From Clostridia bacterium (GTDB lineage: Bacteria > Bacillota > Clostridia > TANB77 > CAG-508), in contig JAZSDU010000007.1 in the NCBI GenBank assembly GCA_045531335.1, forward strand, positions 5,486-69,485: DNA of 64,000 bases. Direction: 5' to 3'. Positions 4,129 to 49,820 of the stretch are shown here, one piece after another. Made by a program: the position numbers and the translations under genes. Under the pieces are notes generated by a model. That model had not been told where the DNA came from and made no database searches. It was given only the letters and a program-made list of their open reading frames with translations. Positions within the stretch are counted from its first letter, which is position 1, and each line of letters opens with the position of its first letter.

Positions 4129-4201
4129 TGTAGGGGTCGACGGCCCTGTCGACCCGAAAACAATAGATTTATCGGGCGGACAGAGTCGTCCGCCCCTACG
4201 G
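4129..4201. repeat. REP-like GC-rich hairpin pair (forward unit 4129..4156, inverted unit 4173..4200)
   Basis: TGTAGGGGTCGACggcccTGTCGACCCGA followed by TCGGGCGGACagagtcGTCCGCCCCTACG. Conserved GTAGGGG plus stem-loop. Confidence 0.85.
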
Positions 4202-4253
4202 TATTTTAATTAGTAATTGTGAATAAATAATATTAAATTCTAGGAGAAATCAA

Positions 4254-4703
4254 ATGAATTATTTAGAAGAATTTGACAAACTTAAAACAAAAGTATTAAA
4301 ATATATATTATTTAAAAAAAGAACTGAATCTGAGATAAGACAAAAATTTATATCAGATGAAGGTGAAATGCTAAATGATGTAATAGACGACTTAAAGGAA
4401 AATGGATATATTGATGATAAAAGGTATGTAGAAAAAGCAATAAACGAATACATGAATTTAAAAAATTTATCAATAAAAGAACTAGAATACAAACTAATTT
4501 CTAAAGGAATTAGAAAAGAAATAATAGATAATTACATATGTTCTAACAAAGAAACTTTATTAGAGTATGAAATGAAATCTGCTATAAATATTATAAATAA
4601 AAAAATAAACACTAATACAAAAGAAGAAATTTTAAATGGACTAAGAAAAAAGAGATATATGGAAGATAGTTTAAAAATAGCAATGCAAGAAATAGAGGAG
4701 TAA
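4254..4703 (+). CDS. recX: Regulatory protein RecX
   Basis: 149-aa helical-repeat ORF directly downstream of recA (YIDDKRYVEKAI...). Position and size fit RecX. Confidence 0.75.
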   Translation: MNYLEEFDKLKTKVLKYILFKKRTESEIRQKFISDEGEMLNDVIDDLKENGYIDDKRYVEKAINEYMNLKNLSIKELEYKLISKGIRKEIIDNYICSNKETLLEYEMKSAINIINKKINTNTKEEILNGLRKKRYMEDSLKIAMQEIEE

Positions 4704-4707
4704 TGCA

Positions 4708-5457
4708 ATGAATAATATTTTGACATTAGAAACAAATAAATATGCAATAAGATTAGATAATTTTGAAGGTCCACTTGATTTACTATGTCATTTAGTAGAT
4801 AAAAATAAAATGGATATACACGAAGTAAATATTAGTAAAATAACAGATCAATATTTAGAATACATAAATGCAATGAAAGAGTTAAACTTAGATGTGACTA
4901 GTGAATTTGTTTTAATGGCATCCACTTTACTATATATAAAATCAAAAAGCTTACTTCCAAAACAAGTAGAAGATGAAGGGGAACTCACAGAAGAGGAATT
5001 AATACATAGAATTATAGAATATAAAAAATATAAAGAAATATGTAAAAAGTTAAGAGAACAATTTGAAATATATTCAAAAAGATTTTATAAATTACCAGAT
5101 AAAATAGAACTTCCAAAAAGAGAACTAGAAGAAAATTATTCTAGTGAACTATTAGAAGAAGCTTACAAAAAATTATTACAAAGAAATAAAGAAAAGATAA
5201 ATGTAAATGCTGCAAACATTGAGAGAATAGCAATTACTGAAACGGTTACAGTAACAAGTAAAGTTAAAGATATATTTAGGGAATTAATGAAAAAACCAAA
5301 ATTTGTATTTAACAGACTTTGTAAATCAAAAAAATATACAAAATTAGAAACAGTTACAGCATTTACAGGATTACTTGAATTAACAAGAAGAAACAAAGTA
5401 AAGACTGAACAAGAAAAAATATTTGGAGATATAACAGTTGAGAAAGCAAGAGATTAA
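4708..5457 (+). CDS. scpA: Segregation and condensation protein A
   Basis: 249 aa. N-terminus is FEGPLDLLCHLVDKNKMDIHEVNISKITDQYLEY, typical of ScpA. No scpB follows. Confidence 0.85.
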   Translation: MNNILTLETNKYAIRLDNFEGPLDLLCHLVDKNKMDIHEVNISKITDQYLEYINAMKELNLDVTSEFVLMASTLLYIKSKSLLPKQVEDEGELTEEELIHRIIEYKKYKEICKKLREQFEIYSKRFYKLPDKIELPKRELEENYSSELLEEAYKKLLQRNKEKINVNAANIERIAITETVTVTSKVKDIFRELMKKPKFVFNRLCKSKKYTKLETVTAFTGLLELTRRNKVKTEQEKIFGDITVEKARD

Positions 5458-5562
5458 TCTTGCTTTTTTATGTTAATGGTGATATTATTTAAACACCCTA
5501 TTTAATGTTCCCTAAAATACTATTAGACCAAGCAATGTAAATTTAATGCGGAGGTATGGTAA

Positions 5563-5784
5563 ATGAAAATAGTAACTGAAACTTTGGCGTATGTAACGCC
5601 TGATGAAGGCCAGGGAGTTTTTGACCTGGCAAAAGAAATTGCAGAAGCAAAAAGAAAAAAAGAAATTGGGGATAAGGTTTTCCTTGAACTTCCTGATGGG
5701 AATAACATTTCCATAAAAGGAAATACTGCTGAAGAGATAAGAGATTCGATTATGACTCAGTGGGAAGGAGACCCCAAATTTTAA
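5563..5784 (+). CDS. Hypothetical small protein (locally higher GC)
   Basis: 73-aa ORF with RBS ggaggt, followed by a hairpin terminator. No family recognised. Confidence 0.45.
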   Translation: MKIVTETLAYVTPDEGQGVFDLAKEIAEAKRKKEIGDKVFLELPDGNNISIKGNTAEEIRDSIMTQWEGDPKF

Positions 5785-47944: not shown

Positions 47945-47991
47945 GAATAAACCAATTAAGTATAAAAGATGAAATTAAGGAGTAAATACTA

Positions 47992-48447
47992 ATGAAGCAA
48001 GAGATACGAAAAGTTAAATATAATAATACTGATTATTTAGAATTATGCGAAGAATTAAACAATCATATTGATAAAGTTGTTGCAGAGCAACGTAAACGTA
48101 ATGCTAATTGTTTAGAAGGGTTAGAAAGATTTAATAATGTATATATAATGTATATTGCAGATAAAATTGCTGGCTGTGTGGCCTTTTCTGATGTTGAGCA
48201 TGACGTAATTAAAGTAGAAAATGTTTTTGTAAAGGAAGAATATAGAAGTAGTGGAGTCGCAACAAAATTATTTGAAAATTTAGAAAATGTAGCAAAAGGC
48301 AAAGGGGCAAAAAGTTTAATTTTAGATACTTATGAAAGACTAGAAAGTGCTGTGAAGTTATATAAAAAAATGGGATTCAAGATAGTACCACAATTTGAGG
48401 AACTTAAAAATTCACCATATTCATTATGTATGCAAAAAGATTTATAG
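47992..48447 (+). CDS. GNAT family N-acetyltransferase
   Basis: VFVKEEYRSSGVATKLF...LYKKMGF motif A/B pattern. Confidence 0.75.
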   Translation: MKQEIRKVKYNNTDYLELCEELNNHIDKVVAEQRKRNANCLEGLERFNNVYIMYIADKIAGCVAFSDVEHDVIKVENVFVKEEYRSSGVATKLFENLENVAKGKGAKSLILDTYERLESAVKLYKKMGFKIVPQFEELKNSPYSLCMQKDL

Positions 48448-48486
48448 AATAACAGTAAAAATGCGAGTTTTGAAAGGAGAAAAGCA

Positions 48487-49752
48487 TTGATTTCATTTTT
48501 AATAAGCGCAATAAAAATAATATTTTTATTAGGTTTTTTGATATTTATACATGAAAGTGGCCATTTTCTAATTGCTAAGGCTTGTAAGATTAAAGTAAAA
48601 GAGTTTGCAATAGGATTTGGTCCTACAATTTGGAAAAAACAAGGCAAAGAAACAAAATATGCTTTAAGATTGATTCCTTTAGGTGGATTTGTTAATATGC
48701 TTGGAGAAGAAGTACGTTCTGAAGAAGAAGGTTCTTTTAGTAAAACAAGTATACCTAAAAGAATATCAGTTGTTTTAGCAGGAGGTTTAGTTAATATAGT
48801 ATTTGGACTTCTAGTGTATTTTGTATTAGTTTCATCTACTGGTAATTATATAAGTACAACAATTGATACAGTTGTTCCAAATTATGCAGCAGAAGAAGCA
48901 GGTATCAATCAAAATGACCAAATTTTAGAAATAGATGGAAAAAAAGTCAGATTAAGAAGCGACATAGATAAGAGTATGCAAAATTCTAATGGAGAACCTA
49001 TAACACTTAAAATAAAAAGAGATAATGAAATAAAAGATATAGAAATAATTCCAACAGTAGAAGAGATAAGAGCAATTGGAATATATCTTGGAACAGAAGA
49101 AAATGACTTATCAGGAGAAATAAAAAGTATATATCAAGATTCACCGGCTGAAAAAGCAGGAATCATGGCAGGTGATAAAATATTAAGTATAAATGATATA
49201 GAAATAGAAGGAGATCCATATAAAATAGTAAATTTGATTTCTGAAAGTGAAACTACTGAGTTGATAATAAAAATTGAGAGAAATAATGAAGTTATAGAAT
49301 TTAATGTTATACCACAAGTTCAAAAATCATACAAAATAGGAGTAACATTTAAAACAGCAGAAAATAGTTTTACAAATAATATATATTATGGTTTTTGGGA
49401 CACGATAGATTTTTCTGTATCTATAATGGATAATTTGAAAATGATGATTACTGGAAATGTTAGTGCTGATCAACTGATGGGACCAGTTGGAATATCTGAA
49501 GTGGTTTCAAAAACACAAGGGATAGTAGAATTTGTATATATGTTAGCACTTATATCATTATCACTTGGAGTAACAAACTTACTTCCATTTCCACCATTAG
49601 ATGGAGGGAAAGTAGTAATTTTATTAGTAGAAGGAATTAGAAGAAAACCTTTAAAAGAAAATGTAGAAATAGCAATACAAATGGCAGGATTTTTCTTGCT
49701 AATTGGATTATCAATATTTGTAACATATAACGATATTTTGAGAATATTTTAA
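48487..49752 (+). CDS. rseP: RIP metalloprotease RseP/RasP (site-2 protease)
   Basis: HESGHFLIAK zinc motif, PDZ domains, NLLPFPPLDGG. TTG start. Confidence 0.88.
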   Translation: MISFLISAIKIIFLLGFLIFIHESGHFLIAKACKIKVKEFAIGFGPTIWKKQGKETKYALRLIPLGGFVNMLGEEVRSEEEGSFSKTSIPKRISVVLAGGLVNIVFGLLVYFVLVSSTGNYISTTIDTVVPNYAAEEAGINQNDQILEIDGKKVRLRSDIDKSMQNSNGEPITLKIKRDNEIKDIEIIPTVEEIRAIGIYLGTEENDLSGEIKSIYQDSPAEKAGIMAGDKILSINDIEIEGDPYKIVNLISESETTELIIKIERNNEVIEFNVIPQVQKSYKIGVTFKTAENSFTNNIYYGFWDTIDFSVSIMDNLKMMITGNVSADQLMGPVGISEVVSKTQGIVEFVYMLALISLSLGVTNLLPFPPLDGGKVVILLVEGIRRKPLKENVEIAIQMAGFFLLIGLSIFVTYNDILRIF

Positions 49753-49755
49753 ATG

Positions 49756-49820
49756 ATGTAGGGGCGAACTGCGTTCGCCTACCTTCGAAGAACGGGAGAA
49801 CAAAGTTCTCCCCTACAAAT
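49756..49820. repeat. REP-like pair (forward 49756..49782, inverted 49792..49820) bridged by CTTCGAAGAA
   Basis: ATGTAGGGGCGAACtgcGTTCGCCTAC cttcgaaga ACGGGAGAACaaaGTTCTCCCCTACAAAT. Confidence 0.85.

Follow-up and report, generated by a model that had tools for sequence, protein, structure and literature searches.

GTAG-type REP hairpins in a low-GC gut Clostridia genome and RAYT genes carrying the same hairpins in relatives

A 64-kb stretch of contig JAZSDU010000007.1 from an uncultured Clostridia bacterium (hereafter the window) carries a dense intergenic family of GC-rich hairpins headed by GTAGGGG. We consider it very probable that these units are repetitive extragenic palindromes (REPs) of the GTAG superfamily, many of them arranged in doublets like those of bacterial interspersed mosaic elements (BIMEs) or REP doublets forming hairpins (REPINs), and that they are of the type that accompanies subclass 2.4 of the tyrosine transposases associated with REPs (RAYTs). 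The conclusion is carried by compensatory variation of the stems within the window and by RAYT genes of related gut bacteria, which contain or adjoin the same kind of hairpin. An earlier reading of the window (the original prediction) had proposed that the units are GTAG-type REPs mobilised by a RAYT encoded elsewhere, and the genes found in relatives support that proposal.

A covarying hairpin family in intergenic DNA

Dinucleotide-preserving shuffles of the window, whose local GC is 25–32% in a genome of ~27% GC and whose GC skew is positive throughout, gave an expectation of 1.35 ± 1.23 GTAGGGG matches on both strands (maximum 5), whereas 24 are present. Each of 22 matches leads into a GC-rich stem-loop; the remaining two (34275 and 46077) lie within coding sequence and have no hairpin. 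Together with one GTAGTGG variant (26130), our recount gives 23 units at 14 loci, the same total as in the original prediction, and a density of 0.34 per kb, or ~1 unit per 3 kb. The head, previously described as invariant, is GTAGGGG in 22 of the 23 units but GTAGTGG once and GTAAGGG in degenerate copies; GTAG itself is kept in 23/23. All 23 units are intergenic in a window that is ~86% open reading frame (ORF) by crude gene calls (56 of 67 genes on the + strand), and their GC content is 60–70% versus 27% for the genome. At six loci the units form inverted doublets in which GTAG is outermost and 11–25 nt separate the hairpins, and there is one tandem cluster (three units from 23482); half of the units are single.

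Structural alignment of 13 units of common geometry (T-GTAG, 8-bp stem, 6-nt loop, CCCG) revealed standard pairs in 90.4% of stem cells. Two G-C pairs close the stem base in 13/13 units and a third in 12/13 (one unpaired cell), while double (compensatory) changes occur at 5 of the 8 pairs, that is, at all five inner pairs. Compensatory cells number 21, compared with 7.8 ± 2.4 in shuffled alignments (0/500 as high), and the signal collapses once the partner column is slid. The earlier statement that the stem changes freely but always with compensation is borne out as to covariation and overstated otherwise, as nearly a tenth of the cells do not pair and the stems form a small number of distinct subfamilies. 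A covariance model (R1) trained on 13 window units, a check that had been suggested from the start, returned 20 matches in the window at E<0.01; 17 are units of alignments A2/A3. The model also picked up the degenerate GTAAGGG unit at 35601 and, more weakly, one at 54987. A search of Rfam found no family matching the units.

Ordinary units have 8-bp stems and loops of 3–7 nt. At least six stem subfamilies are present within the window, each stem subfamily having its own loop:

Subfamily A: stems TCGAC (A1) or CGGAC (A2), loop GNCYCT
Subfamily B: stems TCGGG (B) or CGAGG (B'), loop TTCCAC
Subfamily C: stems CAGG or CGGGC, loop CTTGTG
CGAAC subfamily: 3-nt loop
Tail subfamily (17686, 40400, 23591): conserved 3' tail CTTCGAAGAATTACCYTAA; 11/98 unique units of low-GC loci
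Long-loop units (32051, 33699, 39733–39813): loop inserts of 37–58 nt

The individual units, with covariance-model scores where given, are as follows:

4129..4158, +: unit A1, stem TCGAC; left doublet arm, in the spacer separating a recA-like from a recX-like ORF; 41.6 bits
4172..4200, −: unit A2, stem CGGAC; right arm; 38.3 bits; fold of the doublet z −4.4
17178..17207, +: unit C, stem CGGGC, loop CTTGT; left doublet arm, 16 nt past a stop codon
17216..17245, −: imperfect stem CAGAT/CCTGT; right arm; the doublet forms one long hairpin, z −4.1
17686..17730, +: stem CGACT/AGTCG (one G.T pair), conserved 3' tail CTCTTCGAAGAATTACCCTAA
23482..23511, +: unit B, stem TCGGG, loop TTCCAC; first of three tandem units, 4 nt past a stop codon; 42.3 bits; identical to a unit in locus L109
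23529..23551, +: degenerate unit GTAGGGGGCCTGTGTCCGCCCTC; the sole sense-strand terminator-like unit
23591..23640, +: unit GTAGGGGTCGACGTCCTCGGCGACCCG with tail GTGCTCCAAAGAAATAC; hairpin identical to the REP within the RAYT genes of L222 and L228
26129..26158, +: unit B, head GTAGTGG, stem TCGGG; left arm of a doublet; 38.5 bits
26178..26207, −: unit B', stem CGAGG; right arm
26584..26613, +: A1-type stem TTGAC/GTCGA with a single mismatch; overlap with the stop codon of ORF 26236–26595
29283..29312, +: unit A2, stem CGGAC; doublet arm; its 27-mer also occurs in L095/L202 (within a RAYT gene), L201, L203, L287 and L141
29334..29363, −: unit A1, stem TCGAC; doublet with 29283, fold z −5.6
30708..30736, +: unit C, stem CAGG, loop TCTTGTG
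32051..32101, +: short stem GGGGCG/CGCCC with a 37-nt loop insert (AGGAATACC repeated); 3 nt past a stop codon; a related unit stands in L035 at 17501
33699..33749, +: second long-loop unit, one mismatch against 32051..32101
33776..33805, +: unit B', stem CGAGG; 39.9 bits
39694..39723, +: stem CCGC; left arm of a doublet
39733..39813, −: unit GTAGGGGTCGC...GGCGACCCG with a structured 58-nt loop insert; right arm; z −6.4
40400..40444, +: second tail-subfamily copy; shares its 24-nt head with 17686, G.T pair included; 3 nt past a stop codon, with a promoter-like site downstream of the unit
47087..47113, +: stem CGAAC, 3-nt loop
49758..49782, +: double-foot REP GTAGGGGCGAACTGCGTTCGCCTAC, 5' GTAG and 3' CTAC; 6 nt past the rseP-like stop codon
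49793..49816, −: stem AGAAC; right doublet arm, within the rseP-polC spacer
35601..35632, +: candidate for a decayed unit, TGTAAGGGCAGAT-TTCCAT-ATCTGCCC, then a T-rich tail; 29.2 bits, E 9e-8
54987..55016, +: weak candidate decayed unit TGTAAGGGTTGGTC-AA-GACCAACCC, then TTTTG; 13.9 bits, E 0.04

The last two are TGTAAGGG-hairpins followed by T-runs; either they are decayed REPs with a present role as terminators, or they are terminators whose likeness to REPs is fortuitous. Several distant units differ by 0–1 nt (4130/29362, 4199/29284, 26206/33777, 32051/33699 and 17686/40400). The doublets fold into long hairpins with z about −4 to −6, and the composite of A1 and A2 (TCGAC and CGGAC) occurs twice, at 4129–4200 and 29283–29363; its recurrence in opposite orientations with a 1-nt difference per arm suggests that the doublet itself has been duplicated as a unit.

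Two further observations concern the units and their surroundings. REP units with loop inserts of ~55 nt, analogous to those at 32051, 33699 and 39733, are common to two metagenome-assembled genomes (MAGs; L201:19160–19245 and L287:7688–7773). Directly 5' of the unit at 47087..47113 lies a heptamer run, AGTGAAGA/AGTGAATA, at 47045–47085, and GTGAATA runs of like kind adjoin REPs in L013, L016 and L023.

RAYT genes of relatives and their REPs

A motif screen of the collected loci pointed to L095, the same region as L202 of MAG MGYG-HGUT-00384 (25% GC), where a Y1 transposase gene contains three internal GTAGGGG units; the third, GTAGGGGCGGACGCCTCTGTCCGCCCG, has the same sequence as the window unit at 29284. 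A second, intact copy of the gene in the same MAG (L201) encodes 174 aa, and its in-frame units at 10145 (sense) and 10350 (antisense) encode the peptides VGVGVPDDP and GSSRTPTPT, respectively, with a further unit ~300 bp downstream. Counting L287 and L288 as well as L201 and L202, RAYT genes with internal or flanking GTAGGGG hairpins are present in several low-GC gut MAGs, so that the search for a Y1 gene flanked by units, advised in the original prediction, was successful in relatives. These RAYTs are 174–180 aa long, and within their own ORF the HuH motif is flanked by one REP in sense and one in antisense orientation. A conserved ORF of 80–89 aa with no Pfam match on record overlaps the 3' end of the gene (L201:10507–10776, L287:10536–10787 and L288:10534–10776) and may be a co-transcribed partner.

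Assignment of the enzyme to the RAYT family is supported by several comparisons. For the L201 protein, 5513 homologues were found at E≤1e-5; PF01797 is present in several, and JGI names some of them RayT. The best family is NCBIfam REP_Tyr_transpos (NF047646; E 4e-20), at 72.2 bits, under the equivalog cut-off of 80; the score for Pfam PF01797 (Y1_Tnp) is 23.1 bits against a cut-off of 23, and a 16-sequence RAYT profile matched Escherichia coli TnpAREP (PDB 4ER8) with E 2.1e-9. Residues H96, H98, Y162, N166, W141, Q142, H148 and R151 are invariant in the protein alignment (A1); by our own mapping through the 4ER8 alignment, they correspond to the HuH motif, Y115 (Y162), N119 (N166), W94, Q95, H101 and R104 of the E. 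coli enzyme. In E. coli, W94, Q95, E100, H101 and R104 lie in a stretch linked to GTAG recognition, and Asp at the E100 position is known in other subclasses (Quentin et al. 2018, PMC6006769); our counterpart of E100 by the same mapping, E147, reads Asp in several rows of our alignment.

Association between enzyme and hairpin extends well beyond these MAGs. A RAYT profile scan of genomes returned at least 536 relatives, and the following counts come from the best 80 loci, nearly all from gut Clostridia. GT[AG]G hairpins lie within the RAYT ORF in 77/80 loci and within the gene or ≤400 bp away in 80/80. A sense unit upstream and an antisense unit downstream are found in 71/80 genes, with H-x-H between them in 70, and the two internal stems match in 59 loci; 37 distinct stems occur across genomes. 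The RAYT core of those 71 genes stands within a REPIN-like inverted pair (L207–L286; L201:10145–10350). Among Oscillospiraceae, Acutalibacteraceae, Ruminococcus and allied groups, the partner enzyme is widespread. The RAYT of L364 has an internal REP of a different type, and in two non-Clostridial loci (L104 and L165) a RAYT also adjoins the hairpin architecture.

The units resemble the GTAG superfamily in palindrome, GTAG end and inverted dimers. Its published members are GC-rich palindromes of 20–40 bp with a 6–13 bp stem and a GTAG-like end in >90%, occur extragenically in high copy number, mostly 3' of genes, and frequently form inverted dimers (Di Nocera et al. 2013). In the window we find GC-rich palindromes with an 8-bp stem, GTAG in 23/23 units and six inverted doublets; as to copy number, the 64 kb contain 23 units, all intergenic. 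Subclass 2.4 is characterized by a stem base of three G-C pairs, by double-foot REPs and by intragenic REPs between HuH and the catalytic Tyr; it abounds in Cyanobacteria and Bacteroidetes and is scattered over many phyla (Quentin et al. 2018, PMC6006769). The subclass equals RAYT group 4, with hosts mainly in Cyanobacteria, Chlorobia and Caldilineae and a modest abundance of flanking repeats (14 occurrences; Bertels et al. 2017, PMC5581495). The GTAG foot at the hairpin base, the three G-C base pairs and the double-foot variant at 49758–49782 resemble this subclass, as do the short Clostridial RAYTs, which have no C-terminal extension and carry internal REPs, in frame in L201 and within the ORF at 77 of the 80 loci. 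Placement in subclass 2.4, set by these published traits rather than by a tree, is therefore best regarded as probable. Unlike the published members, the hosts are gut Clostridia, including a lineage of 26–30% GC whose units stand out as isolated GC islands, and the density in the window is ~1 unit per 3 kb, against the modest repeat abundance of group 4.

Comparison with better-known systems reveals both similarities and differences. As in E. coli REPs and BIMEs, the units are extragenic, GTAG-tagged imperfect palindromes, and two stem variants combine in inverted doublets, comparable to Y and Z REPs; E. coli stems are longer and bulged, however, and the E. coli gene is REP-flanked and uninterrupted, unlike the Clostridial RAYT. 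Both E. coli TnpAREP (RayT/YafM, subclass 2.2) and the Clostridial enzyme are HuH-Y1 proteins, the latter having conserved residues at positions that by our mapping align with the stretch connected with GTAG recognition; the two align over part of their length only (E 2e-9). Inverted doublets forming long hairpins, apparent duplication of doublets and lineage-specific occupancy are reminiscent of the Pseudomonas REPIN-RAYT system (group 3, subclass 2.5), in which one master sequence dominates per RAYT, whereas the window has at least six stem subfamilies and many single units. With IS200/IS605 elements (TnpA Y1, e.g. IS608) the system shares the HuH-Y1 core, recognition of hairpins in single-stranded DNA and an expected lagging-strand-template bias; in IS200/IS605, the transposase lies between two different subterminal hairpins and moves with them as a whole, whereas the window hairpins are dispersed alone.

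Based on these parallels, we propose a plausible mechanism by which the units would spread. First, a single-stranded unit would fold into the 8-bp GC hairpin, leaving GTAG unpaired at its 5' foot. A monomeric HuH-Y1 RAYT would then recognize the hairpin together with GTAG, and its catalytic tyrosine would cleave and rejoin the strand, such that single units or doublets are copied or moved into intergenic DNA. Catalysis, the single-strand route and any current activity in the window's genome are predicted from the sequences.

Mobilisation and alternative origins

The original prediction had stated that the window contains no transposase, and searches of the window with tblastn (E≤10) and with a RAYT profile hidden Markov model against six-frame segments (E≤1) both came back blank for a Y1 or RAYT gene. 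The RAYT would accordingly be encoded outside the window, if the genome still has one. A look-up of the exact rseP protein gave no matching record, and the 197 loci fetched with the 27-mer include none from the window's species.

Several points weigh against mobilisation by a subclass 2.4 RAYT in this genome. A RAYT is found neither in the 64-kb window nor in 1.2 kb upstream of it in the same species (L486). In L287, which is syntenic with the window start, RAYT P0003 lies ~2 kb upstream of ymdB; a 2.2-kb contig with the window's exact YmdB has an RNase Y-like gene (our own reading) and a small ORF upstream instead of a RAYT, so the L287 arrangement is not shared by the window's species. The commonest stem in the window (TCGAC, loop GGCCCT) is encoded by none of the ~50 RAYT proteins read out of 120 listed homologues, and the peptide VGVDGPVDP expected from the A1 stem was not among these ~50 sequences. 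The multiplicity of stem subfamilies in place of one master sequence could reflect several RAYTs, or an old population without an enzyme. To our knowledge, movement of REPs by a subclass 2.4 enzyme has not been demonstrated experimentally. Orientation counts in favour of mobilisation, with a reservation: all 11 non-doublet units (8 loci) run in gene direction, and GTAG presumably lies on the lagging-strand template, given the GC skew. This agrees with a single-strand mechanism, but transcription runs the same way, and the bias cannot distinguish replication from transcription because they are co-directional here.

These points raise the alternative that the units are orphans, that is, a RAYT-derived family whose enzyme has been lost and whose copies persist by slow decay or through use by the host, for instance as mRNA 3' hairpins or as binding sites for proteins or gyrase. 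Genomes with REPs yet without tnpAREP have been noted (Quentin et al. 2018, PMC6006769). The missing RAYT in the window and to its left is in line with such a loss, which is further favoured by L033, a REP-bearing relative that retains a C-terminal RAYT relic only, and by the GTAAGGG copies with T-tails (35601 and 54987), which look decaying or co-opted. An active enzyme, in contrast, is favoured by the five near-identical distant pairs and by a unit density equal to that of RAYT-bearing relatives; long decay is hard to reconcile with pairs that differ by 0–1 nt in a genome of 27% GC, and 64 kb is a small sample of the genome. We consider loss of the enzyme an unlikely explanation, and REPs mobilised by a RAYT remain our preferred one.

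Several candidate sites and genes for a RAYT were tried and rejected. The REP doublet at 17179 was considered as a former RAYT site by synteny with L095, but the flanking proteins are unrelated, and tblastx of these AT-rich loci gave low-complexity noise only. No RAYT remnant was found at 23.4–24.0 kb, though the unit at 23591 equals RAYT-internal REPs elsewhere. The Y1 gene of L035 is of a type flanked by terminal inverted repeats, and its ends have no GTAG units, which disqualified it as partner enzyme. This 269-aa Y1-like gene (L035:11260–12370; also in L042 near 13536) has a PRIARK N-terminus, the motifs MDNHAHFL and YIHNNPIKA, and a C-terminal tail resembling a helix-turn-helix, and is flanked by ~30-bp inverted repeats GTGACAATGGGACGGAGTTTTTGTCAC. 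It differs from RAYT in its N-terminus, in its C-terminal extension and in having GTGACAATGGGACGGAG... repeats at its ends rather than GTAG hairpins. Apparently of TIRYT or subclass 2.1 type, it occupies the rseP-polC spacer, the site of a REP doublet in the window.

That the units are ordinary intrinsic terminators or attenuators sharing a GC-rich stem by chance is very improbable. All units lie 3' of genes and start ≤16 nt from a stop codon at 8 of the 14 loci, at 31–125 nt at the remaining loci, so that the claim of nearly all units sitting just after stop codons is correct for little more than half of the loci. Terminator-like sites are also enriched between 16 and 36 kb (14 versus 4.7 expected). 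In that same interval, however, only the unit at 23529 has a hairpin followed directly by a sense-strand T-run, the tails of units being A-rich CCCG(C)AA, and clear terminators without GTAGGGG exist nearby (e.g. 19154 and 24285), which argues against the possibility, raised in the original prediction, that the units are merely terminators. A conserved unpaired GTAG, inverted doublets, presence/absence variation and copies inside RAYT genes are not traits of terminators. Transcribed in sense at the 3' ends of genes, the units may have a secondary effect as mRNA 3' hairpins. Separately, a 34-nt unit, ATGAGAGAGTTCCTGCTTTAGTGGAAGATTAAAA, is tandemly duplicated at 40553–40625, upstream of ORF 40676–41167, and is kept in L010–L012; the duplication is followed by a GGGGGATTAC...GTAGTCCCTC hairpin and a T-run, a leader- or attenuator-like arrangement with no Rfam match.

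Least credible is a family of structured small RNAs or regulator binding sites with no tie to transposition, for although the stems covary, the units are co-oriented with genes and the 3' tail of one subfamily is conserved across species, no Rfam family matches, the genes next to the units share no function, orthologous sites are occupied in some relatives and not in others, and stems vary within a genome while RAYT-internal stems match the units of that same genome.

Site turnover, distribution and significance

The nearest relatives of the window's species are uncultured gut MAGs of 26–30% GC, recorded as 'Clostridia' or 'Clostridium sp. CAG', and the rseP-like protein is ≤79% identical to that of any species-representative genome. 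GTAGGGG is patchy across 80 loci of relatives: the covariance model gave no match in ~101 kb of the closest ones (L009–L012, L014, L017 and L062), compared with 20 in the 64-kb window, and many in other, less close relatives. The rseP-polC spacer, which contains a REP doublet in the window, is 21–36 bp long and empty in many relatives; elsewhere it contains different REPs (L002 and L007) or other palindromic repeats (L003–L006 and L011–L012). Site 40400 is empty in L010–L012, and site 47088 is REP-free in 6/6 closer relatives, with a REP in 1 of 71 compared loci. In L287, which shares the gene order ymdB-spoVS-SBP-recA-recX-scpA with the window start at 66–75% nucleotide identity, units occupy different spacers of the same gene block. 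The units therefore turn over, orthologous spacers being empty in the nearest relatives.

Two other repeat families were seen at these sites. An insert of ~150 bp resembling a miniature inverted-repeat transposable element, with terminal inverted repeats ACAAATACATTACAATATAAATATA..., lies in the rseP-polC spacers of L011 and L012 and is unrelated to the REPs. A second, AT-richer palindromic family (GTGTGAGGTGTGA ... TCACACTTC) stands upstream of ymdB in the window's species (L486:1015–1130) and in the rseP-polC spacers of L003–L006, and is absent from the window.

At a wider scale, the TGTAGGGG-hairpin-CCCG architecture occurs in many phyla and, among the matches listed in a degenerate scan, mostly in GC-rich, unrelated ones. 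The exact A2 27-mer (GTAGGGGCGGACGCCTCTGTCCGCCCG) was found in >120 metagenome stretches, many labelled human gut, with ~100 at 55–65% GC and 9 below 35% GC. These metagenome copies (L289–L408) have conserved flanking extensions of their own, such as CAGAATGCAGCGTTTTCTCGGAAATCTTCGGCA. A pattern for the A2 unit that leaves two loop positions open also matched 77 stretches of IMG/VR viral contigs (42–64% GC; L409–L485); two contigs that were checked have one PHROG match each (internal virion protein), which leaves them as putative phage DNA. A single REP common to hosts 30 GC points apart suggests either horizontal spread or strong constraint by the enzyme. A more specific idea, which we regard as doubtful, is that the REP/RAYT system spreads horizontally among gut Clostridia, with phages as possible targets or vectors given the unit's presence in viral contigs; in a companion reading, the HuH core of the RAYT gene, bracketed by its own REPs in 71 of 80 genes, would be a REPIN-like unit on which the enzyme can act. 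Horizontal spread, if it holds, would differ from the strictly vertical picture in Pseudomonas and enterobacteria, and a RAYT core behaving as a REPIN-like unit would imply self-regulation or exchange of gene segments.

REP/RAYT biology rests almost entirely on Proteobacteria. In the published surveys, GTAG REPs are reported from eight phyla, with Firmicutes and Clostridia unmentioned in the main text (Di Nocera et al. 2013), and Clostridia are mentioned for RAYT group 1 only (Bertels et al. 2017, PMC5581495). Our literature searches found no paper joining RAYT, REPIN and Firmicutes, and a string search for GTAGGGGCG matched only primers. The remark that such a system is not commonly reported in Clostridia agrees with this literature, with the qualification that the RAYT subclass was already known to be scattered over many phyla. 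What we describe is thus a known system in a host group for which we found no report in the literature searched.

These findings widen the host range of REPs to a dense, diversified population in uncultured low-GC gut Clostridia. Two consequences are practical: the recurrent peptides encoded by the hairpins (VGVGVPDDP and GSSRTPTPT) may give rise to spurious ORFs, and the hairpins themselves can break assemblies of gut MAGs. Since insertion sites differ between close relatives, the units could be used as strain markers. More broadly, GC-rich units in a genome of 27% GC provide a natural test of whether such repeats are kept up by ongoing copying or by selection.

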